64,000 nt of DNA from Escherichia coli (lineage in GTDB: Bacteria; Pseudomonadota; Gammaproteobacteria; Enterobacterales; Enterobacteriaceae): assembly GCF_044324785.1 (NCBI RefSeq), contig NZ_CP172127.1; one strand, written 5' to 3'. Position numbers and translations under genes: made by a program. Positions within the stretch are counted from its first letter, which is position 1. Every line of letters starts with the position of its first letter. The notes under the pieces were generated by a model. The model searched no databases. It was given only the letters and a program-made list of their open reading frames with translations, and had not been told where the DNA came from. Below are positions 36,230 through 56,502 of the stretch, piece after piece.

Positions 36230-36243
36230 TGATTTATATCAAA
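36230..36243. promoter_or_regulatory. FNR-type site (TTGAT-N4-ATCAA) in the cydAB upstream region
   Basis: Perfect ttgatttatatcaa palindrome about 340 bp upstream of cydA in a long AT-rich leader; cydAB is FNR/ArcA-regulated. Confidence 0.4.
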
Positions 36244-37641: not shown

Positions 37642-37721
37642 TTTTTATATATTCCCTGTGGCAAATATTGCTAAACAATGCCCGGGGATTAATTTTTATT
37701 ACTCACGGAAAGATTTAAATA

Positions 37722-38144
37722 ATGATCCCATCTCAAATCTCTTTCAACACCCTTCCTGTCAATGCAACATACGCTTCAGAGACAACAGTTGACACACAAA
37801 AATTCTCTGACATCCTCTACTCAGCGGGGTGTTCCCTAAAGGATCTGGCTTATCTGAGCAGATGTCTGGCATCAATACATCCGACTATCGCCAAAAACAT
37901 TTATGAAACAGAAAATCTCAGCGATCAAAAATTACTGCATATTGATTGCCGTAGTACAAATGAAATCAAGATAAATATCTTTTTTGGTCAACAACGAGAA
38001 GGATTAATTGAAATTAATTCTGACACTGTCATTTTTCCGATATTGTCTTCATTAATTGACTCCGCCATTTCTAAATTTCAACACCAAATCCCCGTTAACG
38101 GTTCAGTAAATCCTGACCTATTGTATGAGGATTATACTGATTAA
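37722..38144 (+). CDS. Hypothetical protein (140 aa), acidic, low G+C
   Basis: ORF 80 bp downstream of and co-oriented with the 314 aa ORF; similar AT-rich composition; acidic C-terminus (LLYEDYTD). Confidence 0.4.
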   Translation: MIPSQISFNTLPVNATYASETTVDTQKFSDILYSAGCSLKDLAYLSRCLASIHPTIAKNIYETENLSDQKLLHIDCRSTNEIKINIFFGQQREGLIEINSDTVIFPILSSLIDSAISKFQHQIPVNGSVNPDLLYEDYTD

Positions 38145-38691
38145 ATCCCTCCTGTCGCGAAAAATGGCCTGCGTTATTGCCAGACGTAATAAAACTTTTG
38201 ATTAACGTTACTCGTACTGGTAGCACCTTCATGTACTTTTCTTTTTTACGAAAAATCAAAAGAGCTAACAAAGGTCATAATTCGCATGAATCATTAATTA
38301 TTTGTTATTTTCAACATTATTTTTACATTAAGCAGAGATGAATTGCAGTGAAATTCGACTTAACTTTTATGAAATGCATTTACTCATGGCTAAAGCCACG
38401 TCACAAAAATGCAAATTAGAAGTTGATCACAATTATCTCAATACATCAAATCAAGTTAATTTTAAAAATTTAACATTCATGACATTAGTTGACATAACAC
38501 ACTGAATTAAAATGATAATTTGAAAACACACTTTAAACAATCATTTCCCGAAAGACATTTTGAAAATAGATCAATTGCAACATTACGGTCAGATAAAGAC
38601 ACTCCTGTGATATTAAACCTGTGCCGTTATGAGCGGCCATAAATACGACGTGTGTAACTTATTTTACTCTCTGTCTTACAAAGGATTACCC

Positions 38692-39141
38692 ATGAAGAAA
38701 GCAACACTTGTGATTGGCGTTATTGGCGCGGACTGCCATGCAGTAGGCAATAAAGTTCTGGACCGAGTTTTTAGCAACCATGACTTCAGAGTTATTAATC
38801 TGGGCGTAATGGTCAGCCAGGACGAATATATTGATGCTGCCATTGAAACTGGTGCTGACGCGATTGTCGTCTCCTCTATCTATGGGCATGGCGATATCGA
38901 TTGTCTGGGCATGCGCGAACGCTGCATCGAGCGTGGGCTGGGTAACATCCTGCTCTATGTGGGCGGTAACCTGGTGGTCGGAAAACATGACTTCGCTGAC
39001 GTGGAAACCAAGTTCAAAGAGATGGGATTTGATCGCGTCTTTTCCCCAAGTCATGACTTAGAAGATGTTTGTCAGCTGATGGCCCACGATATCAACCAAC
39101 GTCATGACGTTGATACTCGCATTCTTGAAGAGGCAATCTGA
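38692..39141 (+). CDS. glmS: Glutamate mutase sigma (B12-binding) subunit
   Basis: [18 protein letters not shown] cobalamin-binding motif (DxHxxG); start placed at MKKATLV with AAGGA RBS; stop overlaps the next start. Confidence 0.85.
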
Positions 39142-40529
39142 TGCAAATCGTCTCTGTCGATATTGGATCGACGTGGACCAAAGCAGCCCTCTTCACCCGG
39201 GAGGGGGACGCGTTAACGTTGGTTAACCACGTTCTGACCCCAACCACCACCCATCATCTGGCGAAGGGGTTTTTCTCCAGCCTGGACCAGGTGTTAAACG
39301 TAGATAATGCCCTCCCCCTGTTAAACAGTGGTGAGGTTGCATTGAAGTATTCCTCCTCTGCCAAAGGTGGGCTGGCGGTTGCCGCAATGGGATTGGTGCC
39401 TTCTATCACCCTGGAAACCGCGAAAGTAACCGCTCACTCTGCGGGGGCTAAAATTGCGCAATATTACGCCTACAAGCTGAACCGCCGTGATATCCAGGCA
39501 CTGGAAGAAACGCAGCCCGATATTCTCTTGTTCACCGGCGGCACCGACGGCGGAGAAGAAAGCTACGGCCTGAATAACGCCCGTGTGCTGGCAGAATCCA
39601 AACTCGACTGCGCCATTATTTATGCCGGAAACCGGGATATTCAGGACGAGGTGCAGGAGATCCTAGGGCATAAAGACCTGACCATCGTCGACAATGTTCT
39701 GCCCGATCTTGACCATCCGAACCCTTTAGCTGCACGCCAGGCTATCTGCGACATATTCCTTAAACGCATCGTTAAAGGGAAAGGGCTGGATGTCGTTGTT
39801 GATAAAACAGGCGAAGAACCAATGCCGACACCGTGGACAGTCTTTGAACTGGTTAAGGCAATCAGTAATGTCGATCACAGCTGGAAAGAGTTCATGCTGA
39901 TCGACATGGGTGGCGCAACCACCGATGTCTATTCCGCCTGTGCCAACACGCTCTCGCCCGACACCGTTTTACACGGCGTACCGGAACCCTTCGTGAAACG
40001 GACGGTGGAAGGCGATCTGGGAATGCGCGTCTCGGCAATGGTGGTTGGTGAAAGTGCGAAAGAGTTAGTCAATGTGAATTTTGCTCAGCAACCCGCACAG
40101 CTGGACGCTTTTTATCATTACCTCCGTCATCTAGTCGCTCATCCCGACTACTTACCCGCGAATGCAGAAGAAAAATATTTCGATACCGTCCTGGCCGGAC
40201 TGTGTGTGGGTTATGCCACCGAAAGACATGCGGGCACCAAAAAAGAGGTCTGCACCTGCGTCGGCAATGTCGATTTACAGATGGGACGTGACCTGACAAC
40301 CGTGCGTAAAGTCGTCGGATCCGGCGGATGGCTCTCGCGTGCCAGTCAGTTCGATATGCATCACTGGTTGAAATACCGCGAGTTAAACGACGACGGTAAA
40401 CGCATTCTCTTACCGACCGAATTTGAATATTACCGCGATTCCCGGGGGCTATTACCACTGCTGGCAAACGTCGCCAGAGTCGATCCACTGGCCGCCGCGC
40501 GCACCAGTATTCAATGCTTAACCCTATAA
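39141..40529 (+). CDS. glmL: Glutamate mutase accessory/reactivating protein (MutL/GlmL-like)
   Basis: 462 aa starting [18 protein letters not shown] (ASKHA/actin-like ATPase fold); sits between the S and E subunit genes as in clostridial glutamate mutase operons. Confidence 0.75.
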   Translation: MQIVSVDIGSTWTKAALFTREGDALTLVNHVLTPTTTHHLAKGFFSSLDQVLNVDNALPLLNSGEVALKYSSSAKGGLAVAAMGLVPSITLETAKVTAHSAGAKIAQYYAYKLNRRDIQALEETQPDILLFTGGTDGGEESYGLNNARVLAESKLDCAIIYAGNRDIQDEVQEILGHKDLTIVDNVLPDLDHPNPLAARQAICDIFLKRIVKGKGLDVVVDKTGEEPMPTPWTVFELVKAISNVDHSWKEFMLIDMGGATTDVYSACANTLSPDTVLHGVPEPFVKRTVEGDLGMRVSAMVVGESAKELVNVNFAQQPAQLDAFYHYLRHLVAHPDYLPANAEEKYFDTVLAGLCVGYATERHAGTKKEVCTCVGNVDLQMGRDLTTVRKVVGSGGWLSRASQFDMHHWLKYRELNDDGKRILLPTEFEYYRDSRGLLPLLANVARVDPLAAARTSIQCLTL

Positions 40530-40547
40530 CAATTAAGGCTGCAATCA

Positions 40548-41993
40548 ATGGAACTTCGAAATAAGAAATTAACCCATGACGAATTCATGACCGAGCGGCA
40601 ACAGGTACTGAAAACCTGGGAAACCGGCAAGGATGTTGAAAACTTTGAAGATGGCGTTAAATACCAACAAACCATTCCTGAGCATAAACGCTTCTCTCTT
40701 GCGCTGTTGAAAGCAGACAAGGAAGGTAAAACCCTTAGCCAACCGCGCGCAGGTGTGGCGCTGATGGACGAACACATCGAACTACTGAAAACACTACAAG
40801 AAGAGTGCGATCTGCTGCCGAGCACCATCGATGCATATACCCGTCTGAATCGGTACGAAGAAGCGGCTGTAGGGATTAAAAAATCCATCGAAGCCGGAAC
40901 CTCTAAACTGAACGGTTTACCGGTAGTTAACCACGGCGTCGCAGCTTGCCGTCGCCTCACCGAAACTTTGCAAAAACCGCTACAGATCCGCCACGGCACG
41001 CCAGATGCGCGTCTGCTGGCTGAAATCTCGATGGCCAGCGGCTTTACCAGTTATGAAGGCGGCGGCATTTCCTACAATATTCCGTATGCCAAGCGCGTAA
41101 CGCTGGAAAAATCGATCCGCGACTGGCAGTACTGCGACCGTTTAATGGGGATGTATGAAGAACACGGGATCCGCATCAACCGCGAACCGTTTGGCCCACT
41201 AACGGGTACGCTGATCCCGCCGTTTATCTCGCACTCTATCGCGATAATCGAAGGATTACTGGCGCTGGAACAGGGTGTGAAATCTATCACCGTTGGTTAT
41301 GGACAGGTCGGCAGCCTGACGCAGGATGTTGCGGCGATCCAGTCTCTGCGTGAACTTGCACATGAATACTTTCAGAGCTATGGCTATACCGACTATGAAT
41401 TAAGTACCGTGTTTCACCAGTGGATGGGCGGCTTTCCGGAAGACGAATCGAAAGCGTTCGCTATTATCTCCTGGGGCGCAGCCGTCGCGGGGATGTCTGG
41501 TGCCACCAAAGTCATCACCAAAAGTCCGCACGAAGCCTGGGGTATCCCGACTGCCGCTGCCAACATTCAGGGGCTGAAAGCCTCCCGCCAGATGCTCAAC
41601 ATGGTCAATGAGCAGAAATTCCCGCCGTGCCCTGCGGTTGAACTGGAAATTGAACTGATTAAGAGCGAGGTTCGCGCGGTACTGAATAAAGTGTTCGAAC
41701 TGGGTAATGGTGATATTGCGCGCGGTACGGTGCTGGCATTTGAAGCGGGCGTACTGGATGTGCCGTTTGCGCCAGCCGCCTGCAACGCGGGCAAAATTCT
41801 TCCGGTCCGTGACAACACCGGCGCAATACGCGTACTGGAAGCCGGAGCCGTTCCATTGCCAAAAGATATTCTCGACCTCCACCACGATTACGTTGCGGAA
41901 CGCGCACGCTTTGAAGGACGCCAACCGACATTCCAGATGGTTGTAGATGACATCAATGCTGTATCCCACAGTAAATTAATAGGAAGACCATAA
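40548..41993 (+). CDS. glmE: Glutamate mutase epsilon (catalytic) subunit
   Basis: 481 aa with extensive similarity to remembered clostridial GlmE/MutE (e.g. QPRAGVALMDEHIELL, NREPFGPLTGTL, FQMVVDDI). Confidence 0.85.
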   Translation: MELRNKKLTHDEFMTERQQVLKTWETGKDVENFEDGVKYQQTIPEHKRFSLALLKADKEGKTLSQPRAGVALMDEHIELLKTLQEECDLLPSTIDAYTRLNRYEEAAVGIKKSIEAGTSKLNGLPVVNHGVAACRRLTETLQKPLQIRHGTPDARLLAEISMASGFTSYEGGGISYNIPYAKRVTLEKSIRDWQYCDRLMGMYEEHGIRINREPFGPLTGTLIPPFISHSIAIIEGLLALEQGVKSITVGYGQVGSLTQDVAAIQSLRELAHEYFQSYGYTDYELSTVFHQWMGGFPEDESKAFAIISWGAAVAGMSGATKVITKSPHEAWGIPTAAANIQGLKASRQMLNMVNEQKFPPCPAVELEIELIKSEVRAVLNKVFELGNGDIARGTVLAFEAGVLDVPFAPAACNAGKILPVRDNTGAIRVLEAGAVPLPKDILDLHHDYVAERARFEGRQPTFQMVVDDINAVSHSKLIGRP

Positions 41994-43234
41994 TGAAAAT
42001 AAAACAGGCTCTGTTCACCGCTGGCTACTCCTCATTCTATTTCGATGACCAGCAGGCGATAAAAAACGGAGCGGGTCATGACGGCTTTTTTTATACCGGG
42101 GAGCCAGTAACACAGGGGTTTAACGCCGTACGTCAGGCCGGGGAGTGCGTATCGGTACAGTTGATTCTGGAAAACGGCGCGGTCGCTGTAGGTGACTGTG
42201 CTGCCGTACAGTATTCCGGGGCAGGTGGTCGCGATCCACTGTTCCTCGCAGAGCACTTTATTCCGTTCCTCAACGACCATATTAAGCCATTACTGGTAGG
42301 CCGCGATGTAGATGCTTTCCTGCCGAATGCCCGTTTCTTCGACAAATTGCGTATTGACGGCAACTTGCTACATACCGCCGTACGCTACGGATTATCACAG
42401 GCGCTGCTTGATGCTACCGCGCTGGCAACCGGCCGTCTGAAAACTGAAGTGGTCTGTGATGAATGGCAGTTGCCACGCGTGGCGGAATCCATTCCATTAT
42501 TTGGTCAGAGCGGGGACGATCGATATATCGCCGTCGATAAGATGATCCTTAAGGGCATCGACGTGCTGCCCCATGCACTGATTAATAACGTCGAAGAGAA
42601 ACTGGGCTTTAAAGGTGAAAAACTGCGCGAATATGTCCGCTGGCTGTCGGATCGTATTCTGAGCAAGCGCACCAGCGCACGCTACCACCCTACCCTGCAC
42701 ATCGATGTATACGGCACTATCGGTCTGATCTTCGATATGGATCCGCTTCGCTGTGCGCAATACATCGCCAGCCTGGAAAAAGAAGCGCAAGGCCTGCCGC
42801 TCTACATTGAAGGGCCGGTCGATGCCGGTAACAAGACCGATCAAATTCGCCTGCTGACCGCGATTACCAAAGAGCTGACGCGCCTCGGTTCCGGCGTGAA
42901 AATTGTGGCCGATGAATGGTGTAACACCTACCAGGATATTGTTGATTTCACTGATGCCGCCAGTTGCCACATGGTGCAAATCAAAACCCCGGATCTGGGC
43001 AGTATTCACAACATCGTCGATGCAGTTCTTTATTGCAACAGCCACAGCATGGAAGCGTACCAGGGCGGCACCTGCAATGAAACTGATGTCAGTGCCCGCA
43101 CCTGTGTCCACGTCGCCCTTGCCGCTCGCCCCATGCGTATGCTGGTAAAGCCAGGGATGGGCTTTGACGAAGGCCTCGATATCGTCTTCAACGAAATGAA
43201 TCGTACTATCGCGCTGTTGCAGGCTAAGGATTAA
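41993..43234 (+). CDS. mal: 3-methylaspartate ammonia-lyase (beta-methylaspartase)
   Basis: 413 aa enolase-superfamily protein matching remembered clostridial MAL (GDCAAVQYSGAGGRDPLF, HMVQIKTPDLG); start overlaps glmE stop. Confidence 0.85.
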   Translation: MKIKQALFTAGYSSFYFDDQQAIKNGAGHDGFFYTGEPVTQGFNAVRQAGECVSVQLILENGAVAVGDCAAVQYSGAGGRDPLFLAEHFIPFLNDHIKPLLVGRDVDAFLPNARFFDKLRIDGNLLHTAVRYGLSQALLDATALATGRLKTEVVCDEWQLPRVAESIPLFGQSGDDRYIAVDKMILKGIDVLPHALINNVEEKLGFKGEKLREYVRWLSDRILSKRTSARYHPTLHIDVYGTIGLIFDMDPLRCAQYIASLEKEAQGLPLYIEGPVDAGNKTDQIRLLTAITKELTRLGSGVKIVADEWCNTYQDIVDFTDAASCHMVQIKTPDLGSIHNIVDAVLYCNSHSMEAYQGGTCNETDVSARTCVHVALAARPMRMLVKPGMGFDEGLDIVFNEMNRTIALLQAKD

Positions 43235-43237
43235 CAA

Positions 43238-44608
43238 ATGGCTCGTTCTTTTAAAGTCTTATCGCCAACGGCAATCCTCGGGTATGGATTCCCGGAAGAG
43301 AGCTTCCGCAAAGCGATGGCAGAATCGCCCGATCTGATCGCCGTTGATGCAGGCTCTTCCGATCCAGGCCCCCACTACCTCGGGGCGGGCAAACCGTTTA
43401 CCGATCGCGCAGGGGTCAAGCGCGATCTGCGCTATATGATCACCGCAGGCGTTCAAAATAATATACCGGTGGTGATCGGAACGGCCGGCGGTTCTGGTGC
43501 CGCTCCACACCTGGAGTGGTGCCGAGAAATAATTCATGAGATTGCCCGGGAAGAGCACCTCTCGTTCTCGATGGCGCTGATCCCAGCAGACGTTGACAAA
43601 GCCATCGTCCACCAGGCGCTGGATAACGGCAAAATCACGGCGCTGGATTTTGTCCCGCCGTTAACCCACGACGCGATTGACGAAAGTACGTATATCGTCG
43701 CGCAAATGGGCATCGAACCCTTCCAGCGGGCGCTGAAAGAAGGCGCGCAAGTGGTGCTGGGCGGGCGCGCTTACGACCCGGCCTGCTTTGCTGCGCTACC
43801 GATCATGCAAGGCTTTGATGAAGGTCTGGCGCTGCATTGCGGGAAAATCCTTGAATGCGCGGCAATCGCCGCAACGCCCGGCTCAGGCTCTGACTGTGCG
43901 ATGGGCATCATTGATGACAACGGCTTTACGCTGAAGACATTTAATCCGAAGCGTAAATTTACCGAAACGTCAGCAGCTGCACACACACTGTATGAGAAAT
44001 CCGATCCCTACTTCCTGCCAGGACCTGGCGGCGTGTTGAACCTGAAAGGCTGCACATTTAAAGCGGTCAATGACGGCGAAGTGTACGTCAGCGGTTCTAA
44101 GCATGAAGAAACGCCGTATGCCCTGAAACTGGAAGGTGCGCGACGGGTGGGCTTCCGCTGTCTGACCATCGCCGGAACGCGCGACCCGATCATGATCGCC
44201 GGGATCGATAAAATCATCGATGAAGTCAAAACCAGCGTTTCGCGTAACCTGTCGCTCGACGATGACAGCATTCGCATCAATTTCCACCTGTACGGCAAAA
44301 ACGGGGTGATGGGCGACCATGAACCGATGCAAACTGCCGGGCATGAGCTGGGGATTGTCCTAGATGTAGTTGCACCGACCCAGGAAATTGCCAACAGCGT
44401 TTGCTCGCTGGTGCGCTCTACTATGCTGCACTACGGCTATGAAAACCGCATCGCTACCGCAGGCAACCTGGCGTTCCCGTTCTCCCCTTCTGATATCCAG
44501 GGCGGGCCAGTATACGAATTTTCCATATATCACCTGATTGAAGCCAACGACGCTCTGCGTTTTGATTTCCATATTGAACAGGTGACGCCAGAAGGAGTTC
44601 AGGCATGA
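43238..44608 (+). CDS. DUF1446-like (AtuA-like) protein of unknown function
   Basis: 456 aa ORF beginning 4 nt after the mal stop; family assignment from memory of the N-terminal region, not verified. Confidence 0.55.
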   Translation: MARSFKVLSPTAILGYGFPEESFRKAMAESPDLIAVDAGSSDPGPHYLGAGKPFTDRAGVKRDLRYMITAGVQNNIPVVIGTAGGSGAAPHLEWCREIIHEIAREEHLSFSMALIPADVDKAIVHQALDNGKITALDFVPPLTHDAIDESTYIVAQMGIEPFQRALKEGAQVVLGGRAYDPACFAALPIMQGFDEGLALHCGKILECAAIAATPGSGSDCAMGIIDDNGFTLKTFNPKRKFTETSAAAHTLYEKSDPYFLPGPGGVLNLKGCTFKAVNDGEVYVSGSKHEETPYALKLEGARRVGFRCLTIAGTRDPIMIAGIDKIIDEVKTSVSRNLSLDDDSIRINFHLYGKNGVMGDHEPMQTAGHELGIVLDVVAPTQEIANSVCSLVRSTMLHYGYENRIATAGNLAFPFSPSDIQGGPVYEFSIYHLIEANDALRFDFHIEQVTPEGVQA

Positions 44609-44922
44609 AACAGTCAATTGTCTCACTGGCGCAAGTCATTCGTTCGAAAAATGCCGGACCTTACGAACTGGTTTTAGATATTTTATTTAAAACCAAAGAA
44701 AACTATGAGCGAGTTAAATCATCAGGGCAATTAACCCCAGAACTGATTGCGCGCTTATATCATGTTGAACCTGACTTTATTCACCGTATTGTCTGGTTTG
44801 ATCCTTCTAACGCAGTAAAAATCGTCATGCCACGAGATATTATCTCCGGGAATGTAGGTGACAATGATGTCTATGGTGCACAGCAACATGCACCTTTATT
44901 AAATATGAGTTTCGATTTGTAA
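44605..44922 (+). CDS. Small protein (105 aa), DUF4387-like
   Basis: Start overlaps the stop of the preceding ORF (ATGA); DUF1446/DUF4387 pairing recalled from other genomes. Confidence 0.5.
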   Translation: MKQSIVSLAQVIRSKNAGPYELVLDILFKTKENYERVKSSGQLTPELIARLYHVEPDFIHRIVWFDPSNAVKIVMPRDIISGNVGDNDVYGAQQHAPLLNMSFDL

Positions 44923-45003
44923 AAATCCGAACATTTTTAGCCAACTGACATCCCGTCACTTATTGCAGTTCAACACTTCAGCTATTTGTAAGGTTGTAAT
45001 AGC

Positions 45004-45055
45004 AGGTAGATGCCTGAATCTCTATTCGGGCATCTACTTCTCCTGATTCTGATTT
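45004..45055 (+). terminator. Candidate hairpin/partial terminator between the enzyme block and the transporter gene
   Basis: 10 bp stem GTAGATGCC..GGCATCTAC followed by a T-rich tract (ttctcctgattctgattt). Confidence 0.3.
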
Positions 45056-45082
45056 ATCGCCGTGCACCTGATGGAGGAAAAA

Positions 45083-46363
45083 ATGAAGAAAATAAGTTTA
45101 ACCACGATGATTCTTTTGGCGCTGGTACTTGGAATGATTATCGGCGTAGTGCTCAATAACACTGCTTCACCGGAAACCGCAAAACTCTATGCGCAAGAAA
45201 TATCGATATTCACGACGATTTTCTTACGACTGATAAAAATGATTATCGCTCCGTTAGTGGTCTCTACCCTGGTGGTAGGTATAGCTAAAATGGGCGATGC
45301 CAAAGCCCTTGGTCGTATTTTTTCTAAAACACTCTTTTTATTTATTTGCGCCTCATTGCTGTCAATTGCCTTAGGCTTGATAACAGTAAATTTCTTCATG
45401 CCAGGCACAGGAATTAATTTTGTTGCACACGGAGCCGAAACCACCGGAGTGGTCGCGTCAGAACCCTTTACGCTAAAAGTATTTATTTCGCATGCTTTCC
45501 CCACCAGCATTGTCGATGCCATGGCGCACAATGAAATTTTGCAAATCGTGGTGTTCTCAATTTTCCTCGGCTGTAGCCTGACGGCGATTGGCGAGAAAGG
45601 CAGCGCCATCGTTCACGCCTTAGATTCGCTGGCACATGCCATGTTAAAGCTCACTGGCTACGTCATGCTCTTCGCTCCCCTGACCGTATTCGCTGCTATT
45701 TCAGCATTGATTGCTGAACGAGGACTGGCAGTTATGGTGAGCGCCGGGATCTTTATGGGTGAATTTTATTTCACCATGTTATTACTTTGGGTGCTGCTTA
45801 TCGGTCTGGCCATCGTTTATGTCGGCCCCTGCATCAGACGCCTGACCCGCGCCCTTTCGGAACCCGCCCTGCTGGCATTTACCACATCCAGTTCTGAAGC
45901 GGCTTTTCCGGGAACGCTTGAAAAACTGGAGCAATTTGGCGTTTCCCCCAAAATTGCCAGCTTTGTCTTACCCATTGGCTACTCATTTAATCTCGTTGGA
46001 TCAATGGCCTACTGCTCCTTCGCCACAGTTTTCATCGCCCAGGCCTGCAATATCCATTTATCCATCGGTGAGCAAATCACCATGCTGTTGATCCTGATGT
46101 TGACCTCGAAAGGAATGGCTGGCGTACCACGCGCCTCAATGGTGGTTATCGCCGCCACGCTCAACCAGTTCAATATTCCGGAAGCGGGGCTGATCTTGCT
46201 GATGGGCGTTGATCCGTTCCTTGATATGGGGCGTTCCGCGACAAACGTCATGAGCAACGCAATGGGCGCTGCGATGGTGAGTCGGTGGGAAGGCGAACAT
46301 TTCGGCGAGGGCTGTCGGGGTAAAGCATTAAAACCCAATGAATCGAACGTTGCTCTGCCCTGA
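45083..46363 (+). CDS. Dicarboxylate/amino acid:cation symporter (GltP/DctA family), probable glutamate uptake
   Basis: Hydrophobic ORF, start placed at MKKISL with GGAGG RBS; GltP-like N-terminus. Confidence 0.8.
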   Translation: MKKISLTTMILLALVLGMIIGVVLNNTASPETAKLYAQEISIFTTIFLRLIKMIIAPLVVSTLVVGIAKMGDAKALGRIFSKTLFLFICASLLSIALGLITVNFFMPGTGINFVAHGAETTGVVASEPFTLKVFISHAFPTSIVDAMAHNEILQIVVFSIFLGCSLTAIGEKGSAIVHALDSLAHAMLKLTGYVMLFAPLTVFAAISALIAERGLAVMVSAGIFMGEFYFTMLLLWVLLIGLAIVYVGPCIRRLTRALSEPALLAFTTSSSEAAFPGTLEKLEQFGVSPKIASFVLPIGYSFNLVGSMAYCSFATVFIAQACNIHLSIGEQITMLLILMLTSKGMAGVPRASMVVIAATLNQFNIPEAGLILLMGVDPFLDMGRSATNVMSNAMGAAMVSRWEGEHFGEGCRGKALKPNESNVALP

Positions 46364-46470
46364 GGGGGATCTTAAGCAATCAGAAGCCAATGACTACGCA
46401 TTTTTATAAGCCGGATCATGAAGTTAGACGGCAATTAAGTAACACTAACGTTTAAGGTGAAAAGTGAAAT

Positions 46471-48123
46471 ATGTCCAAACCATTTATCTGGCAAGAACCG
46501 TTTCTACAAAATAAAGACGGTACAGAATATACATTAATTAGCGATCAACATATTACAGTAACGGAATTAGACGGCGAAGAAGTGATAAAAATCGCTCCTG
46601 AAGCATTAACGCTGCTTGCCCGGCAGGCATTTTATGAAGCCTCTTTTTTCTTACGTTCCGCTCATTTGCAACAGGTCGCCAGCATTCTTAACGATCCGCA
46701 GGCCAGTAGTAATGATAAATACGTTGCGTTGCAGTTATTACGTAATGCTGAAGTCTCAGCAAAAGGGGTATTACCCAACTGTCAGGATACCGGCACCGCA
46801 ACTATTGTTGCCAGTAAAGGGCAACAGATATGGACCGGAGGTAACGACGCCGAAGCCTTAAGCAAAGGCATTTACACCACTTTTCAGGAAAATAATCTGC
46901 GCTTTTCACAAAATGCGCCACTGGATATGTATACCGAAGTCAATACGCAAACCAATCTACCGGCGCAGATTGATATCAGCGCCGTCGCTGGTGATGAGTA
47001 CCATTTTCTCTGTATTAATAAAGGGGGCGGCTCTGCCAATAAAGCCGCGCTTTATCAGGAAACAAAATCCCTATTGCAACCAGAAAAACTGACCGCATTT
47101 TTAATCGAAAAAATGAAATCGCTGGGCACCGCTGCCTGCCCGCCTTACCACATCGCCTTTGTCGTCGGAGGGCTTTCAGCCGATCAAACCTTAAAAGTTG
47201 CCAAGCTGGCCTCAACGAAATATTACGACAATTTGCCCACCAGCGGAAACGCGCAGGGACAAGCATTCCGTGATATTGAGTTGGAAAAAGCGTTGCTCAA
47301 CGCCAGTCAGCAATTTGGTATTGGTGCGCAATTTGGGGGTAAATATTTCGCTCATGATATTCGCGTCATTCGTCTGCCGCGTCACGGTGGCTCTTGCCCG
47401 ATAGCTATGGCGCTCTCCTGTTCTGCCGATCGCAATATCAAAGCAAAAATTAACAAGCACGGTATCTGGCTGGAAAAACTCGTACACAATCCGGGGCAAT
47501 ATATTCCAGCCTCACTGCGGGAAGAAAATCACCCGCAACATGTACAGCTGGATCTAAACCGTCCGTTGCGTGACGTGATGCAGGATCTCGCCAGATTACC
47601 GGTAGGCACCCGCGTGTCGTTAAATGGTCCCATCGTAGTGGCGCGCGATATCGCCCACGCCAAAATAAAAGCGCGGCTGGATAGCGGCGAACCGATGCCG
47701 GATTACCTGAAGCATCATATTGTCTATTACGCTGGCCCGGCGAAAACACCTGAGAACATGGCCTGCGGTTCACTGGGTCCAACCACGGGTGGACGAATGG
47801 ACGGTTATGTCGATACCTTCCAGGCGGTTGGCGGCAGTCTGGTGATGTTATCGAAAGGTAACCGCAGCCAGCAGGTCACCGATGCCTGTCACAAACATGG
47901 CGGCTTCAATCTGGGAAGTATTGGCGGTGCAGCAGCGTTACTGGCGCAAGAATATGTCAAAAGTCTGCGTTGCCTGGAATACCCGGAGCTGGGTATGGAA
48001 GCGGTGTGGATGATGGAAGTGGAAAATCTGCCCGCATTCATCCTGGTAGATGATAAAGGCAATAATTTCTTTAGTCAGTTTGAGCAGCAACACCGCTGCG
48101 CCAGTTGCCCTGCGGGACATTAA
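46471..48123 (+). CDS. Class I fumarate hydratase paralog (candidate mesaconase)
   Basis: 550 aa nearly collinear with remembered E. coli FumA ([37 protein letters not shown]); located in the methylaspartate cluster. Confidence 0.85.
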
Positions 48124-48132
48124 GGAAAATGA

Positions 48133-48735
48133 ATGGAAGCGCGAATTTCAACTGAACGGCATGTGCAGCGCCAGCAGAAATTGAAGGAACAGGTCGATAC
48201 GCGCGTCGCGGCGGCGATAGAGAAAAAAGGGATCTTGATTGTTTTCACCGGCAACGGCAAAGGGAAATCCACTGCCGCGTTTGGTACTGTGACGCGCGCG
48301 GTGGGTCATGGCAAAACGGTGGGGGTTGCGCAGTACATCAAGGGGCAATGGGACAACGGCGAATACAACCTTCTCCAGCCGCTGGGGGTTGAGTTTCATA
48401 TTATGGGAACCGGTTTTACCTGGGAGACACAGAACCGGCAAGCGGATATCGACGCGGCGAAAGAGGTCTGGTCGGAAAGCAAACGGATGCTGGCTGACAA
48501 GCGTTACGACTTAGTGGTGCTTGATGAGCTGACCTATATGCTGGCTTACCATTATCTGGACACCGAAGAAGTGATCGCTTCTCTGCAAAACCGCCCGGCA
48601 CAACAAAGTGTCATTGTCACCGGACGCGGTTGCCACAGTCAGATATTAAAAATGGCGGATACGGTCAGCGAAATCCGCCCCGTCAAACATGCTTTTGATA
48701 ACGGCATTCAGGCGCAGCCGGGTATCGACTGGTAA
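48133..48735 (+). CDS. ATP:cob(I)alamin adenosyltransferase (BtuR/CobA family)
   Basis: 200 aa with IVFTGNGKGKSTAAFG P-loop; collinear with remembered BtuR. Confidence 0.85.
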   Translation: MEARISTERHVQRQQKLKEQVDTRVAAAIEKKGILIVFTGNGKGKSTAAFGTVTRAVGHGKTVGVAQYIKGQWDNGEYNLLQPLGVEFHIMGTGFTWETQNRQADIDAAKEVWSESKRMLADKRYDLVVLDELTYMLAYHYLDTEEVIASLQNRPAQQSVIVTGRGCHSQILKMADTVSEIRPVKHAFDNGIQAQPGIDW

Positions 48736-48768
48736 TAACTGCGCCTGGCATCCCGCCAGGCGCAGGTT

Positions 48769-49674
48769 TTACATCTCCTGCGGTACGACCGATTTCGCCA
48801 GCAACCATTCACGAAATTGCTGCAAGTGCGGCGAGTCAGACTTCTCTTCCTGCCACGTCATAATAAAACGATTACCGGTACGAATAGGCACATCACAGGG
48901 AATCACCATATCGCCACTATCCAAATCATGTTGAATAGCGAACCGTGGTAACAGCGCCACGCCGAGATTAGAGCGCACGGCGGCAATCAGCATTGAAAGC
49001 AAATCGAAACGTGGTCCGTTGTTGACCAGCGGACTGCTAACGCCAGATAAGGCAAACCACTCTTCCCAGCCAGTAATACGGGTACTTTGATGCAGAAGTG
49101 GTAACTCTGTAAGCAGTTCTGCCACTGACAGTTTTTGATCGGACATTGCAAGCAAACTGCCGCTGCATACCGGCAAAATCTCTTCTTCAAAGAGATATTC
49201 TACTTCCGCCCAGGGCGCGCAAAAATTTTCGCGCATAATGACAGCATCGTACTCCCGATTAAGAAAATCGCCGTTATTAGCTAAAGAGTGAATATTAACA
49301 ATAATATCGGGATGTAACTTTGTGAATTCATGTAAATTTGGGATTAACCAGTGGGTACTAAACGTAGGATTCACGGCAAGTTCAATAACCTGAACCGTAG
49401 GCTGCCAGGTCATAATGGTATTGGTATCGCGTTCCAGCTTATTTAATGTTTCTTTTACTATCCCCAGGTAATACTTCCCTGCATCATTAAGAAAAATACG
49501 TTTTTTAGAGTGTGAAAATAACGGAGTATGTAAAAATTCCTCCAGCGCACTCACTTGTCTGAATACTGCACTTTGGGTTAACGCTAACTCCTCTGCCGCT
49601 CTGGTATAACTTTCATGACGTGCGACGACCTCAAAAGTCACCAGCAGTTCCGTTTTAGGTATTTTCCCTCGCAT
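48769..49674 (-). CDS. LysR-family transcriptional regulator
   Basis: 301 aa with N-terminal LysR HTH (YTRAAEELALTQSAVFRQVSALE); convergent with the pathway operon. Confidence 0.8.
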   Translation of the reverse strand: MRGKIPKTELLVTFEVVARHESYTRAAEELALTQSAVFRQVSALEEFLHTPLFSHSKKRIFLNDAGKYYLGIVKETLNKLERDTNTIMTWQPTVQVIELAVNPTFSTHWLIPNLHEFTKLHPDIIVNIHSLANNGDFLNREYDAVIMRENFCAPWAEVEYLFEEEILPVCSGSLLAMSDQKLSVAELLTELPLLHQSTRITGWEEWFALSGVSSPLVNNGPRFDLLSMLIAAVRSNLGVALLPRFAIQHDLDSGDMVIPCDVPIRTGNRFIMTWQEEKSDSPHLQQFREWLLAKSVVPQEM

Positions 49675-49705
49675 AATGCCGTCCCTTAAAAATAGTTTAA
49701 ACCAT

Positions 49706-49723
49706 CAAAAATACATTACTTAT
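49706..49723. promoter_or_regulatory. Inverted repeat TTACTT-N6-AAGTAA upstream of the LysR gene
   Basis: Perfect 6 bp arms about 32 bp upstream of the LysR start; fits a T-N11-A LysR-type box. Confidence 0.3.
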
Positions 49724-50239
49724 TACGAAGTAATGGTAACCAAAGCAGCAATAAATAATTTATAAGAATCATGATTGACATTTATAACCCAGTAAGCCTG
49801 GCGTGACAAATATCTTAATCAGATAATAATAATCCGAAAAGCACAGCGCCTTTCGAATTATCCGGAATCACATTAAGTGAAAATTATTAAATTGATATCA
49901 TTTATCATATCTGTGGATATTATGATAAACAATCAACAAAGATTTTATTTTTGATTTATAGCATATCCCTCTAAGAATTTTTGCGATGCTGCAATATCCG
50001 GGGTAAAGACCCGATCCTGGCTGACAAATGGCACGACTTGACGATAAGCGGTGAACATCGCTTTTGTTGATTTACTTAACGCTACGGTCAAACGCTGGGA
50101 AGCCAGTGCATCAGGTAACGATTCGAAATTCGCCGTCGTTCTTATTCGTGGCTTGCGGTCGGTTGCGGCAATCCACAGTGGCTGTGGTCATGCAGTCAAG
50201 CCAGCGGTCAGATTTCGACCGTGGTTAACGTTTAAGGCA

Positions 50240-50339
50240 TAAAAAAGGCCATCATACGATGGCCAACCATGTCGAAACCGACAGCCCTTCGCCATTCCTG
50301 TAGAGGGAAGCGGCGAGGGCTATTTCTTATTACAGATAT
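50240..50339 (-). ncRNA. sdhX: sucD 3'UTR-derived sRNA (SdhX/RybD-like) with intrinsic terminator
   Basis: About 100 nt directly downstream of the sucD stop ending in hairpin ggccatcgtatgatggcc plus U-run on the minus transcript; identity by position and memory only. Confidence 0.45.
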
Positions 50340-51209
50340 TTATTTCAGAACAGTTTTCAGTGCTTCACCGATATCCGCCAGGCTGCGAACGGTTTTCACG
50401 CCTGCGGCTTCCAGAGCAGCGAATTTCTCATCCGCAGTCCCTTTACCACCGGCAATGATGGCACCTGCGTGACCCATACGTTTGCCTTTCGGCGCAGTCA
50501 CACCAGCGATGTAACCCACAACTGGCTTGGTAACGTGCTCTTTGATGTACGCAGCCGCTTCTTCTTCAGCGCTACCGCCGATCTCACCGATCATCACGAT
50601 CGCTTCGGTCTGCGGATCTTTTTCGAACATTTCGAGGATGTCGATAAAGTTAGAGCCAGGGATCGGGTCGCCGCCGATACCAACACAGGTCGACTGACCG
50701 AAACCGTAATCCGTGGTCTGTTTAACCGCTTCATAGGTCAGTGTACCGGAACGGGAAACGATACCCACTTTACCCGGTTTGTGAATGTGACCAGGCTGGA
50801 TACCGATTTTGCATTCACCCGGAGTGATAACGCCTGGGCAGTTCGGGCCGATCATGCGAACGCCCGCTTCATCCAGTTTCACCTTCACGGTCAGCATATC
50901 CAGCGTCGGGATGCCTTCAGTGATGGTGATAATCAGTTTGATGCCTGCATCGATAGCTTCCAGAATGGAGTCTTTGCAGAACGGTGCTGGTACGTAGATA
51001 ACAGAAGCGGTAGCGCCAGTAGCAGCAACAGCTTCACGCACGGTGTTGAACACCGGCAGGCCGAGGTGGGTAGTACCGCCTTTACCTGGGGTTACGCCGC
51101 CAACCATTTTGGTGCCGTATGCAATGGCCTGTTCAGAGTGGAAAGTCCCCTGGCTACCGGTAAAGCCCTGGCAGATAACCTTGGTGTTTTTATCAATTAA
51201 AATGGACAT
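50340..51209 (-). CDS. sucD: Succinyl-CoA synthetase alpha subunit
   Basis: 289 aa starting [18 protein letters not shown]; synteny. Confidence 0.95.
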
Positions 51210-52375
51210 TATTTCCCCTCCACTGCGGCAACAACCTGCTGAGCTGCATCCGTCAGACCTTTTGCTGCAATAATATTCAGGCCGCTGTCAGCCAGTTTCT
51301 TCGCGCCGAGTTCGGCGTTGTTACCTTCCAGACGTACCACGACCGGTACGTTAACACCCACTTCCGCTACCGCGCCGATGATACCGTCAGCGATCAGGTC
51401 GCAACGAACGATACCGCCGAAAATGTTAACCAGAACGGCTTTCACTTTGTCGTCAGAGAGGATGATTTTGAACGCTTCGGTTACACGTTCTTTGGTTGCG
51501 CCGCCGCCAACGTCCAGGAAGTTAGCTGGTTCGCCGCCGTGCAGTTTAACGATGTCCATGGTGCCCATCGCCAGACCTGCGCCGTTAACCATACAACCGA
51601 TGTTACCGTCCAGCGCAACGTAGTTCAGTTCCCACTGTGCAGCCTGTGCTTCACGCGGATCTTCCTGCGACTGGTCACGCATTTCGCGCAGATCAGGCTG
51701 GCGGAACAGTGCGTTGCCGTCAGCGCCCAGTTTGCCGTCGAGGCAAATCAGATCGCCCTGTTTGGTGATGACCAGCGGGTTGATTTCGATCAGCGCCAGG
51801 TCGCGCTCCAGGAAAATGGTCGCCAGGCCCATGAAGATTTTGGTGAACTGCTGAACCAGTTTACCTTCCAGACCCAGTTTGAACGCCAGCTCGCGTCCCT
51901 GATATGGCATCGGGCCAGTCAGCGGATCAAGCGCAACTTTGTGGATCAGGTGCGGAGTTTCTTCCGCCACTTTTTCGATTTCCACGCCGCCTTCGGTGGA
52001 GGCCATAAAGACCACACGACGGGAACTACGGTCTACAACGGCACCGAGATACAGCTCTTTAGCGATATCGGTCGCTGCTTCAACCAGAATCTGGTTAACC
52101 GGTTGGCCATTGGCATCTGTTTGATACGTTACCAGACGCTTGCCCAGCCAGTTTTCTGCAAAAGCACGGATGTCTTCTTTGCTGTTTACAACTTTCACAC
52201 CGCCCGCTTTACCGCGGCCACCAGCGTGAACCTGACATTTCACTACCCACGGACCGGCACCGATTTTTGAAGCGGCTTCTTCTGCTTCGCGCGGAGTAGT
52301 ACAGGCATAACCCACCGGTGCTGGTAAGCCATAGCGGGCAAAAAGTTGTTTTGCCTGATATTCATGTAAGTTCAT
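51209..52375 (-). CDS. sucC: Succinyl-CoA synthetase beta subunit
   Basis: 388 aa starting [18 protein letters not shown]; stop overlaps sucD start. Confidence 0.95.
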
Positions 52376-52468
52376 GTGTTCTGTCCATCCTTCAGTAATC
52401 GTTATCTTTTAAACCGTAGACCGACACCCTATCCACGTCGGTCTACAGTGCAGGTGAAGCTTAAACTA

Positions 52469-53686
52469 CTAAACGTCCAGCAGCAGACGCGTCGGATCTT
52501 CCAGCAACTCTTTGATCGTTACCAGGAAGCCCACGGATTCGCGACCATCGATCAGACGGTGATCGTAGGACAGCGCCAGGTACATCATCGGCAGGATCTC
52601 AACCTGGCCATTCACTGCCATCGGACGATCTTTGATAGCGTGCATACCCAGAATTGCGCTCTGCGGCGGGTTGATGATCGGCGTAGACATCAGGGAACCG
52701 AACACACCACCGTTGGTGATGGTGAAGTTACCACCGGTCAGATCTTCAACCGTCAGCTTGCCGTCACGGCCTTTGACTGCCAGCTCTTTGATTTTCTTCT
52801 CGATGTCTGCCATGCCGAGGGTATCGACATCACGCAGTACCGGCGTCACCAGGCCGCGCGGCGTAGAAACCGCCATGCTGACGTCGAAATAGTTGTGGTA
52901 AACCACATCATCGCCGTCGATAGACGCGTTCACTTCCGGGTAACGTTTCAGGGCTTCAACCACCGCTTTCACGTAGAAGGACATAAAGCCCAGACGAATA
53001 CCGTGACGTTTTTCAAACGCTTCACCGTACTGCTTACGCAGATCCATAATCGGCTTCATGTTGACTTCGTTGAACGTGGTCAGCATGGCGGTGGAGTTTT
53101 TCGCTTCCAGCAGACGCTCTGCCACACGCTTACGCAGGCGAGTCATCGGCACACGTTTTTCGCTACGTGCAGCCAGAGCCGGTTGCGCCGCCGGAGCCGC
53201 AGCTGCCGGAGCAGACTCTTTCGCCGGAGCTTTCGCCAGATGTTTTTCCACATCTTCACGAGTCAGACGACCACCCACACCGGTACCTTTAATGGCGCTG
53301 GCGTCGAGGTTATGTTCAGCCAGCAGGCGACGGATCGCCGGGCTTAACGCATCGTTGTTTTGCTCTTCCAGAGACGCCTGCTGGCGTTGCGCCGGAGTGG
53401 ACGCTTTCTCTTCAGATTTGGCGCTGGTTTCTTTACCCGCGCTGTTGCCTTCACGCAGGCGACCAAGGATCTGACGAGACGTTACGGTTGTACCTTCATC
53501 TTCCAGAACCGCATCCAGAATGCCGTCTGCTGATGCCGGTACTTCCAGTACCACTTTGTCAGTTTCGATTTCTACCAGCACTTCATCACGTACGACTGCG
53601 TCGCCGGGTTTTTTATGCCAGGTTGCGACGGTGGCATCGGCTACGGATTCAGGCAGGTCAGGGACCAGAATATCTACGCTACTCAT
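52469..53686 (-). CDS. sucB: 2-oxoglutarate dehydrogenase E2 (dihydrolipoyl succinyltransferase)
   Basis: 405 aa with lipoyl domain, Ala/Pro-rich linker and catalytic domain. Confidence 0.95.
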
Positions 53687-53700
53687 TGTGTATCCTTTAT

Positions 53701-56502
53701 TTATTCGACGTTCAGCGCGTCATTAACCAGATCTTGTTGCTGTTTCTGGTGAACGGACATATACCCTACCGCCGGAGAGGCGGAGGCCGGGCGGCCTGCA
53801 TAACGCAGAGAAGCCCCAAACGGAATCACTTCACGGAAATGATGCTGGCTGCAGTACCATGCGCCCTGGTTGAGCGGTTCTTCCTGGCACCAGACAAAAT
53901 CCTTGACGTGAGCAAACTGCTGCAACACTTCCTGCATCGCTTTATGCGGGAACGGGTAGAGTTGCTCGATACGCACAATGGCGACATCGTGTTGATTGTT
54001 CTTACGGCGTTGTTCCAACAGGTCGTAATAAACCTTACCAGAACACATCACTACGCGCTTCACGCCCTTCGGATCAAGCTCGTCGATTTCACCGATGGCT
54101 GGCAGGAAGGTGCCGTTCGCCAGTTCTTCGAGGCTGGAAACCGCCAGCGGATGACGCAGCAGGGATTTCGGCGACATCACGACCAGCGGACGACGCATCC
54201 CGCGCAGCGCCTGACGACGCAGCATGTGGTAAACCTGTGCCGGGGTAGACGGTACGCACACCTGCATGTTTTGCTCAGCGCAAAGTTGCAGATAACGTTC
54301 CAGACGCGCGGAGGAGTGCTCCGGCCCCTGCCCTTCGTAACCGTGCGGCAGCAACATCACCAGACCACACATCCGGCCCCATTTCTGTTCGCCAGAGGAG
54401 ATGAACTGGTCGATAACCACCTGAGCACCGTTGGCGAAGTCACCGAATTGCGCTTCCCAGATGGTCAGGGTGCGTGGTTCTGCGGTGGCATAACCGTATT
54501 CAAACGCCAGCACTGCTTCTTCAGACAGTACGGAGTCCCAGACACGGAACGCGCCCTGGCCGTTATGGATGTGTTGCAGCGGCGTGTAAGTGGAACCGTT
54601 AGACTGGTTGTGGATCACCGCGTGGCGGTGGAAGAAGGTACCGCGACCGGAGTCTTCACCCGACAGGCGAACCGGAATGCCTTCGTCAACCAGCGTGGCG
54701 TAAGCGAGGTTTTCCGCGCCGCCCCAGTCGAACAGTTTCTCACCGGCTGCCATTGCCTGGCGATCGCCATAAATCTTGGCAACGCGAGACTGCATTTCAA
54801 CTGCTTCCGGCACCGTGCTGATGCGTTTAGCCAGTTCCTGCAGGCGCTTCATCTCAACTTTGTTCGGGTACTCTTCGTCCCATTCGTGGTTGAGGTACGG
54901 TGACCAGGTGAAAGAGTGCATGTTCATCGGACGCCACTCTGCTACCACGCAATCGCCAGCATCCAGCGCATCGCGGTACAGGTTAACCATCTCGGTGGCA
55001 TCTTCCAGCGTCGCGACTTTTTCCTGCTCCAGCTTGTCAGCGTAGATTTTGCGCGGCGTCGGATGTTTTTTGATTTTCTGATACATCAGCGGCTGGGTTG
55101 CGCTCGGCTCGTCGGCTTCGTTATGGCCATGACGGCGGTAGCACACCAGGTCGATGAAGACATCACGTTTAAAGGTGTTACGGAAATCGAGCGCCAGACG
55201 GGTCACAAAGGCAACGGCTTCCGGATCGTCCGCGTTAACGTGGAAAATCGGGGCCTGAACCATCTTACCGATATCAGTACAGTACGGCGTAGAACGGGCA
55301 TCCAGCGGATTAGAGGTGGTGAAGCCAACCTGGTTGTTGATAACGATACGTACCGTACCGCCAACTTCATAACCACGCGCTTTCGACATGTTCAGAGTTT
55401 CCTGAACCACGCCCTGCCCGGTCACTGCGGCGTCACCATGAATGGTGATTGGCAGCACTTTGTTGCTGCTCGGCTCATCAAGTCTGTCCAGACGGGCACG
55501 AACAGAACCGATAACTACCGGGCTTACAATCTCAAGGTGAGACGGGTTAAACGCCAGCGCCAGGTGCACCAGGCCGCCATCGGTCTGGAAGTCAGACGAG
55601 AAGCCCATATGGTATTTCACGTCGCCTGTGCCGAGGTGTTCTTTATGTTTACCGGCAAACTCGTCGAACAAGTCTTGCGGTTTTTTACCCAGCACGTTCA
55701 CCAACACGTTCAGACGACCACGGTGCGCCATTCCGAGAACCACTTCGCGGGTGCCGCTGTTGCCAGCGTGGCGGATCATCTCTTTAAGCATCGGGATTAA
55801 CGCGTCACCGCCTTCCAGCGAGAAGCGTTTTGCGCCAGGGAATTTTGCGCCGAGGTAACGTTCAAGGCCTTCAGCGGCGGTCAGTTCGCTTAAGAAGCGT
55901 TTTTTCTCTTCGCTATTGAAAGTCGCGCGACCAGACTCGATACGCTGTTGGATCCAGCGTTTTTCTTCGGTGCTGGTGATGTGCATATACTCGGCACCAA
56001 TCGGGCCGCAGTAGGTTTGCTTGAGTGCTTCCAGCAGTTCGCCGAGTTTCATGGTTTCTTTGCCGCTGGCAAATGAACCGACGTTGAAGGTCTCCTGGAA
56101 GTCTGCTTCGGTCAGATCGTGGAAAGACGGATCCAGATCGGCCACTTTATCTTGCTGCCACAGTCCCAGCGGATCGAGATTCGCATGCTGGTGACCACGG
56201 AAGCGGTATGCGTTAATGAGCTGCAGGACTTTAACCTGCTTCACATTGGTGTCAGGGTCGGAGATCGTTGAAGAGTAACGTGAAGCGTCTTTCGCCAGGC
56301 GGCGGAAATATTCACGCGTTTGAGAGTGGAATTGATCCGGTTTGACTCCCGTACCAGGTAACTGCTGGAACGTCGAACGCCAGTTAGCGTCAACCGAGTC
56401 AGGATCGGTTAAGAAGTCTTCATAGAGCTGTTCTATCCAGCTCTGGTTTGCGCCAGAGAGGTAAGAAGAGTCCAACCAGGCTTTCAAAGCGCTGTTCTGC
56501 AT
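53701..56502 (-). CDS. sucA: 2-oxoglutarate dehydrogenase E1
   Basis: 933 aa starting [17 protein letters not shown]. Confidence 0.95.

Follow-up and report, generated by a model that had tools for sequence, protein, structure and literature searches.

A 64,000-nucleotide stretch of Escherichia coli DNA (contig NZ_CP172127.1 of assembly GCF_044324785.1; the whole stretch is called the window here) encodes a class I fumarase-type protein within a methylaspartate gene cluster, and the question raised by this locus is whether the enzyme serves that pathway as a mesaconase or is one more fumarase. Outside the window, at other places on the E. coli chromosome, are fumA, which adjoins fumC, and fumB, which adjoins dcuB. 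We consider it very likely that the gene in the window is fumD, coding for the E. coli class I mesaconase/fumarase, and that its product would catalyse the third chemical step of a methylaspartate route encoded by the cluster. This reading is carried by identity with an assayed enzyme, a conserved active site, the gene order and the conservation of that order across genera. Judged by its sequence, it represents an allele of a mesaconase/fumarase gene that was published together with its context, and so is already known; as a discovery it carries little weight, since gene context, enzyme and kinetics all appeared in 2015 (PMC4682846), as the earlier note on this DNA had suspected in calling it 'likely known'.

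The fumD gene and its assayed counterpart

The fumD ORF (46471..48123, + strand) starts with ATG at 46471, is intact up to the stop codon that ends at 48123, and specifies a protein of 550 aa; a Shine–Dalgarno-like AAGGTGA, read from the sequence at 46454..46460 (+ strand), lies about 10 nt before the ATG. The protein carries the Pfam domains Fumerase (PF05681, residues 50–325, E = 2e-74) and Fumerase_C (PF05683, residues 331–536, E = 1.4e-77), both far above their gathering scores and fused in a single chain of about 550 aa, as in the single-polypeptide class I type, and it scores 1273.9 bits (cutoff 1060), spanning 1–550 of 550, with the NCBIfam equivalog NF011921, 'class I fumarate hydratase'. 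ORF, Pfam domains and equivalog agree with the 550-aa class I fumarase-type protein that the earlier note had placed here. With the FumA model NF011919 the protein scores 924.4 bits, under the cutoff of 1105, and with NF011920 916.9 bits, under the cutoff of 1094; in view of these scores and of an identity of only 68 % to FumA and 67 % to FumB (K-12 proteins from NC_000913), we rejected FumD as an ortholog of either. In the alignments, the N-terminus shows a single gap of 1 aa and the C-termini differ by 3 aa, which makes 'nearly collinear' with FumA, as the protein had been described, an apt phrase. By its domains, and by the ligands and catalytic residues predicted from alignment (see below), the product is confirmed as a class I [4Fe-4S] fumarate hydratase. 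None of the four small ORFs that overlap fumD (three antisense, one out of frame) had a family match, and they were dismissed as genes.

The relative that informs on function was described by Kronen & Berg (PLoS One 2015; PMC4682846), who assigned the O157:H7 gene fumD (ECs0757 / ECATCC700728_0849) to a mesaconase/fumarase and counted it as a 'fourth fumarase gene' besides those of FumA, FumB and the class II enzyme FumC, a count that agrees with the 'third class I fumarase paralog' of the earlier note; this is the O157:H7 report to which that note had alluded. The primers with which they cloned fumD have exact matches in the window at both ORF ends (forward core 46471–46492, reverse 48106–48123), and the window protein is identical to the Sakai ECs_0757 protein (NC_002695) at 537 of 550 residues (97.6 %) without gaps. 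The two share the locus, the gene order, the length of 550 aa and the equivalog NF011921, whereas the window allele differs at 13 residues and comes from a non-O157 E. coli lineage. ORF, family matches, primers and alignments together point to a class I [4Fe-4S] mesaconase/fumarase. The characterised mesaconase function is absent from the annotations: RefSeq labels the window gene only 'class I fumarate hydratase', and the Sakai record NC_002695 mislabels ECs_0757 'fumA'. Because the name 'FumD' was suspected of conflicting with a use for ydhZ, the available literature was searched for ydhZ as a fumarase, and no report was returned.

The published kinetics of ECs0757 (PMC4682846) give a Vmax of 292 U/mg, a Km of 0.15 mM and a kcat/Km of 2x10^6 M-1 s-1 on mesaconate, and a Vmax of 671 U/mg, a Km of 0.9 mM and a kcat/Km of 7.5x10^5 M-1 s-1 on fumarate, so that kcat/Km favours mesaconate 2- to 3-fold (about 2.7) and the Km is 6-fold higher on fumarate. 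In the same report the efficiency on mesaconate relative to fumarate was 4 % for FumA and 19 % for FumB, that is, mesaconate/fumarate kcat/Km ratios of 0.04 and 0.19, against about 2.7 in FumD (published ECs0757). ECs0757 was also oxygen-sensitive, Fe2+ plus thiol reactivating it only partly after aerobic purification (PMC4682846). The prediction that the gene encodes the pathway mesaconase gains from this, given the exact primers and the 97.6 % identity to an enzyme that prefers mesaconate; from ECs0757 we infer that the window allele would share both the preference for mesaconate (in kcat/Km) and the oxygen-labile Fe-S activity.

FumA and FumB, and also the class I enzymes of Plasmodium and Burkholderia, hydrate mesaconate. 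Since almost any class I fumarase would do so, mesaconate hydration alone is a weak discriminator, and since FumA and FumB also perform it, the mesaconate step does not strictly depend on FumD. On these grounds, and considering that the Vmax of ECs0757 is higher on fumarate than on mesaconate, it might be argued that FumD is mainly an extra oxygen-sensitive fumarase backing FumA and FumB (in the TCA cycle or the reductive branch), with a mesaconase activity that is generic promiscuity and a place in the cluster that is incidental or reflects the nearby sdh–suc genes. We regard this as very unlikely: the 6-fold higher Km on fumarate and the 2.7-fold kcat/Km advantage of mesaconate are the reverse of what was found for FumA and FumB, and the evidence from gene context, to which we turn below, also speaks against it.

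The methylaspartate cluster and the citramalate step

The cluster runs glmS–glmL–glmE–mal–cmlA–cmlB–transporter–fumD–cobO, all on the + strand, with the same order in Sakai and strain 1190; the published order is GlmS, MutL/GlmL, GlmE, Mal, DUF1446, GltP, FumD, CobA, LTTR (PMC4682846). It begins with glmS (38692..39141), for the B12-binding subunit S of methylaspartate (glutamate) mutase (NF002612, 251 bits), glmL or mutL (39141..40529), for the glutamate mutase accessory/reactivating protein (NF040745, 510.6 bits, cutoff 475), and glmE (40548..41993), for the catalytic subunit E (TIGR01503, 865 bits), followed by mal (41993..43234), for 3-methylaspartate ammonia-lyase (TIGR01502, 545 bits; domains MAAL_N and MAAL_C). 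For glmS, the mechanical ORF starts at an in-frame upstream ATG (38629), and RefSeq uses the shorter form. An AtuA-family (DUF1446) gene, the putative cmlA (43238..44608), and a DUF4387 (PF14330) gene, the putative cmlB (44605..44922), which overlaps the end of the former by 4 nt, precede a gene for an SDF-family dicarboxylate/amino acid:cation symporter (45083..46363; mechanical ORF start GTG 45062). The symporter, called GltP in PMC4682846, was assigned by family match and scores under the cutoff for DctA orthologs and under that for GltP orthologs, which leaves a candidate substrate class only. Immediately downstream of fumD, starting 9 nt past its stop codon, lies cobO/cobA (48133..48735), for cob(I)alamin adenosyltransferase, and a LysR-family gene (48769..49674, − strand) is convergent with the operon.

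Spacing is tight from glmS through the DUF4387 gene (gaps of −4 to +18 nt) and then widens to 160 nt before the transporter gene and 107 nt between it and fumD, to close again to 9 nt between fumD and cobO. The transporter gene ends at 46363 and glmS, glmL, glmE and mal lie upstream, so that fumD is indeed inside the methylaspartate cluster and directly after the transporter gene, as had been noted earlier. A scan for promoters and terminators over the cluster returned sites no more often than shuffled sequence, and we consider plausible only a site before glmS and a hairpin after cobO. The former, a sigma-70-like promoter candidate (38489..38516, + strand; TTGACA, 16 nt spacer, AATGAT; 10/12), is the best match in the 547-bp gap before glmS and a weak one, the scan having given fewer sites than shuffles predict. 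The latter, a GC-rich terminator-like hairpin (48739..48765, + strand; 11 pairs, 9 of them G–C) with a weak T-tail, directly follows cobO, in the space where cobO and the LysR gene converge, and probably marks the end of the operon. By the same scan no promoter-like or terminator-like site was found in the transporter–fumD gap (46364–46470), which is consistent with co-transcription of fumD with the transporter gene; we infer that the cluster is co-transcribed, and the LysR product is a candidate for its regulator. An Rfam scan of 35000–53000 at gathering thresholds gave no match, and so neither a cobalamin riboswitch nor any other known RNA family is recognized in the cluster.

The fate of citramalate was left open in 2015, when no citramalate lyase activity was found in experiments in which the cluster was never expressed (PMC4682846). 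In PDB 9ERQ/9EVF the depositors named chain A 'Citramalate lyase, subunit A (cmlA)' and chain B 'Citramalate lyase, subunit B (cmlB)'; the AtuA-family protein of the window is identical to the former at 421 of 456 residues (92.3 %), and the DUF4387 protein aligns with the latter over residues 1–104 with 193.5 bits. According to a preprint, used here as a secondary source, Raoultella planticola Cml converts citramalate to pyruvate and acetate, and growth needs mesaconate and Cml, by way of a class I fumarase plus Cml; searches of the available literature for a primary report on CmlAB, for DUF4387 and for a citramalate lyase of the AtuA family returned nothing. If the assignment holds, which is based on the names given by the PDB depositors and on the preprint, the pair would be CmlA/CmlB orthologs, and the cluster would encode every step leading from glutamate to pyruvate and acetate, with FumD as the hydratase. 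Genes annotated as 'AtuA family' and 'DUF4387' would then be readable as citramalate lyase, making the enterobacterial cluster complete and closing the open end noted in 2015.

In the route that we propose, the SDF transporter would provide uptake, GlmS and GlmE together with GlmL would convert glutamate to threo-3-methylaspartate, with CobO supplying AdoCbl for the mutase, and Mal would convert threo-3-methylaspartate to mesaconate, the substrate of FumD. FumD would then, as the third chemical step, form (S)-citramalate from mesaconate, and CmlAB would split (S)-citramalate into pyruvate and acetate. The whole would amount to a self-contained, cobalamin-dependent methylaspartate pathway encoded by one co-oriented and mostly tightly spaced cluster, and flux through it may occur in vivo, although Kronen & Berg found no condition under which O157:H7 expresses the cluster (PMC4682846). 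The cluster itself encodes both the producer of the FumD substrate (Mal) and the presumed consumer of its product (CmlAB), which argues further against a fumarase merely backing FumA and FumB, a view to which the location of the island, adjoining sucABCD and sdhCDAB, lends some colour.

Clostridial MesAB has the same pathway role (mesaconate to citramalate), adjoins glm and mal genes and is likewise a class I fumarase homologue; it is, however, a heterodimer of two subunits in a different phylogenetic cluster, whereas FumD is a single chain, and the clostridial methylaspartate clusters use a citramalate lyase of the CitDEF type where the E. coli cluster would use CmlAB. Mesaconases were concluded to have arisen independently several times (PMC4682846).

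Active-site residues and substrate preference

Class I fumarases hold their cluster by three Cys-bound irons, and the fourth, labile iron engages the substrate. We know of no solved structure of FumD or of any dedicated mesaconase and, to our knowledge, the preference for the methyl group is without a structural explanation. The closest solved relative of FumD is the Leishmania major enzyme LmFH-2 (PDB 5L2R; E = 4e-209 over residues 18–536), a eukaryotic true fumarase. The active site of LmFH-2 has been described in a preprint that draws on this structure (bioRxiv 10.1101/2022.09.03.506457) as comprising the cluster ligands Cys133, Cys252 and Cys346, the catalytic residues Asp135, His334, Thr467, Thr468 and Arg471, and the substrate-binding residues Gln134, Arg173, Gly216, Arg421 and Lys491, with Thr467, assisted by Arg421 and Arg471, proposed as the base and Asp135, with His334, as the acid. 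In the HMMER alignment with FumD, where the numbering is shifted by 29 throughout, each of these 13 residues is conserved in the window protein, as the [4Fe-4S] ligands C104, C223 and C317, the catalytic residues D106, H305, T438, T439 and R442, and the substrate-binding residues Q105, R144, G187, R392 and K462.

By analogy, C104, C223 and C317 would hold the [4Fe-4S] cluster, the fourth, non-Cys-ligated iron would bind the substrate and activate its hydroxyl, T438 with R392 and R442 would act as the catalytic base, and D106 with H305 as the catalytic acid. The enzyme would be of the homodimeric type, with mesaconate (methylfumarate) as the preferred substrate, hydrated reversibly to (S)-citramalate, and with fumarate hydrated as well. 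FumA and FumB have the same fold, the same Fumerase plus Fumerase_C pair and identical Cys ligands, catalytic residues and substrate-binding residues, and both hydrate mesaconate; in contrast to this likeness stand the kcat/Km ratios given above, the separate clade of FumD and its other genomic context. The identity of the catalytic residues is one more point that a fumarase in support of FumA and FumB could claim.

FumD deviates at 57 positions from a residue common to FumA, FumB and LmFH-2, among them G440, which flanks T438/T439, and S461, which flanks K462. Of the residues that set FumD apart from these three enzymes, N103, T111, A114, N183, G307 and G440 were considered as a mesaconase signature and rejected, as all six also occur in a homologue from Providencia alcalifaciens, around which no glm gene occurs within 10 kb; the signature, G440 included, thus does not cleanly mark the pathway context, and a relative of this type away from glm genes is again what a generic fumarase would lead one to expect. 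The residues S461, C432, N480 and A487 form a narrower set than the six.

Distribution and constraint

Of 5426 complete E. coli genomes, 1117 carry the 14.3-kb cluster, collinear and with an identity of up to 99.1 %; taken by itself, the fumD gene is present in 1121 (about 21 %, close to the 26.5 % reported in 2015, PMC4682846). A database search found FumD orthologs of 80–87 % identity in Citrobacter, Buttiauxella, the Klebsiella oxytoca group, Enterobacter, E. fergusonii and the Salmonella enterica subspecies salamae and diarizonae, orthologs of 75–78 % in Pseudescherichia, and proteins of 548–550 aa with about 70 % identity in Hafnia, Yersinia and Providencia. A phylogeny against FumA and FumB, which had been suggested as a check, placed the FumD orthologs in a clade apart from FumA/FumB and the Hafnia/Yersinia/Providencia group between the two (neighbour-joining, 23 sequences, no bootstrap).

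Pseudescherichia carries the same cluster at the same cydA–sucD site. In Yersinia and Hafnia a LysR–fumD–cobO group lies beside a divergent glmS–glmL–glmE block, extended in Yersinia by mal and the AtuA gene; a LysR gene adjoins fumD in Hafnia, Yersinia and Pseudescherichia too. The linkage of fumD to methylaspartate genes thus survives rearrangement across genera, which argues for a role in the pathway. Since fumD stays linked to glm and mal genes in Escherichia, Pseudescherichia, Yersinia and Hafnia despite differing sites and gene orders, it is hard to see its position as incidental, as the view of FumD as a spare fumarase requires.

The 13 substitutions from Sakai to the window allele (Q76P, S136T, V182I, I243V, E261A, V274A, E277N, E338V, A355P, S385N, E411D, I447V and A453V) spare all active-site residues. 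Polarised with outgroup orthologs, E261A, E338V, A355P and A453V are derived in the window lineage. Position 338 is Glu in Sakai FumD, FumA, FumB and LmFH-2 and at least 90 % conserved among 23 aligned proteins; since E338 is so conserved, the activity of the window E338V allele is expected rather than demonstrated. Selection was compared in three pairs among the window, Sakai and strain 1190, pairs that are non-independent because their lineages overlap. The gene is under purifying selection, with an omega of about 0.21 and no frameshifts; the neighbours all have an omega of 0.065 or less. At similar pS, pN is 0.0055–0.011 for fumD versus 0.0011–0.0023 for eight pooled neighbours, that is, about 5 times more nonsynonymous change in fumD (Fisher p = 5e-5, 0.002 and 0.002 for the non-independent pairs). 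An omega near 0.2, together with the full-length ORF and the intact active site, indicates that fumD is maintained, and its weaker constraint is perhaps owed to FumA and FumB, which can partly substitute for it.

A more speculative possibility, which we think rather doubtful, is that the constraint on fumD is relaxed or altered relative to the operon and that its preference for mesaconate stems from a few second-shell changes (such as A-to-G at 440 and A-to-S at 461) next to catalytic residues that are otherwise invariant. Were this so, circulating FumD alleles, that with E338V included, could differ in substrate preference and would offer a ready-made set of variants for tracing how a class I fumarase comes to favour a methylated substrate.

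Finally, one might take the cluster for an unused accessory island, cryptic or in decay, with fumD drifting and redundant with FumA/FumB, in line with the excess of nonsynonymous change over its neighbours at an equal synonymous rate, the E338V change at a conserved site, the presence of the island in only about 21 % of E. coli genomes and the failure to find, in O157:H7, methylaspartate ammonia-lyase activity, growth on glutamate or any expressing condition (PMC4682846), but we consider this the least credible of the readings, given an omega well under 1 (and lower still in the neighbours), an ORF that is intact and of full length throughout the 1122 matching records, a complete set of active-site residues, a cluster conserved across genera and the occurrence of the exact 550-aa sequence on 207 contigs of NCBI E. 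coli records. We therefore retain the reading of fumD as the maintained gene for the mesaconase of the cluster. As regards the origin of the allele, O157:H7 was rejected as the window lineage, the fumD DNA being 98.0 % identical to that of Sakai and 99.0 % identical to that of other E. coli; the flanking sucABCD genes are at most 98.9 % identical to those of any complete genome.

The chromosomal site of the island and its border at sdhX

The glutamate-mutase/fumD island is located between sucD/sdhX and cydA (window ~36000–50300), at a site where the K-12 chromosome (763000–773000) carries mngR-mngA-mngB instead, that is, the mannosylglycerate PTS and mannosidase genes. The glm/fumD island and mngR-mngA-mngB are alternative accessory cassettes of one locus, and in Pseudescherichia vulneris, too, this site is occupied by the glm island. 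At the sucD side, the sucD 3′ UTR (50239–50339, minus strand) shows full-length identity to the K-12 sdhX small-RNA gene, through the terminator hairpin (50247–50264 inclusive), and it is directly past this hairpin that the sequence departs from K-12 and the island begins; Rfam, applied at the gathering threshold, gave no match within 50239–50339. In the E. coli genome search, not all matches were to chromosomal records: of the 1122 for fumD, one is on a record typed as a plasmid, and the same holds for at most three of those for the cluster region.

The region between cydA and glmS

Two plus-strand ORFs, of 314 aa (36697–37641) and 140 aa (37722–38144), lie between cydA and glmS. Both are annotated as 'hypothetical protein' in O157:H7 Sakai and in strain 1190, neither has a Pfam match, and the 314-aa ORF has no NCBIfam match either. 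They accompany the island in E. coli, and the equivalent place in the Pseudescherichia locus is without counterparts of them. The adjoining 547 bp upstream of glmS (38145–38691) are non-coding, and the region's best promoter-like match falls here (38489–38516); despite the B12-dependent pathway encoded downstream, Rfam found no match, and hence no cobalamin riboswitch, in this stretch.

Names carried by the cml and fumD genes

The plus-strand genes annotated as 'AtuA family protein' and 'DUF4387' (43238–44922) match chains A (92.3 % identity) and B (193.5 bits), respectively, of PDB entries 9ERQ/9EVF, which the depositors name citramalate lyase CmlA and CmlB. The RefSeq annotation of the pair lags behind the CmlA/CmlB naming, for which no primary paper was found in the literature collection searched; the Sakai labels for the same two genes are '3-methylaspartate ammonia-lyase' and 'acyl-CoA synthetase'. 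Similarly, fumD is named 'fumA' in the Sakai reference record (ECs_0757, NC_002695.2), which could mislead annotation transfer. In EcoCyc, 'FumD' may be the name of the unrelated K-12 protein YdhZ, which would amount to a name collision; a literature search on this point returned nothing.

Replacement rate in fumD, host lineage and unusual homologues

When the operon (38692–48735) was compared with those of Sakai and strain 1190, fumD was found to gain amino-acid replacements ~5 times faster than its eight operon partners, although synonymous rates are similar (omega ~0.21 for fumD vs ≤0.065 for the partners); the fumD excess gave Fisher p values of 5e-5, 0.002 and 0.002 for three pairs, which are non-independent. 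In the FumD allele of the window, the substitution E338V affects a residue that hardly varies elsewhere, and the exact protein is present on 207 E. coli contigs. The housekeeping genes sucABCD (50340–56500) reach a maximum of 98.9 % identity against 5426 complete E. coli genomes, none reaching 99 %; the complete genomes in RefSeq therefore include no close representative of the host lineage.

Within the alignment of FumD homologues, one Klebsiella michiganensis member (P0061) has the Cys104-Gln-Asp motif replaced by a locally scrambled segment (KLPG...HRE), which looks like the product of compensating frameshifts or of sequencing error. The cluster representative P0017 carries H305Y, at the position of the catalytic-acid partner.
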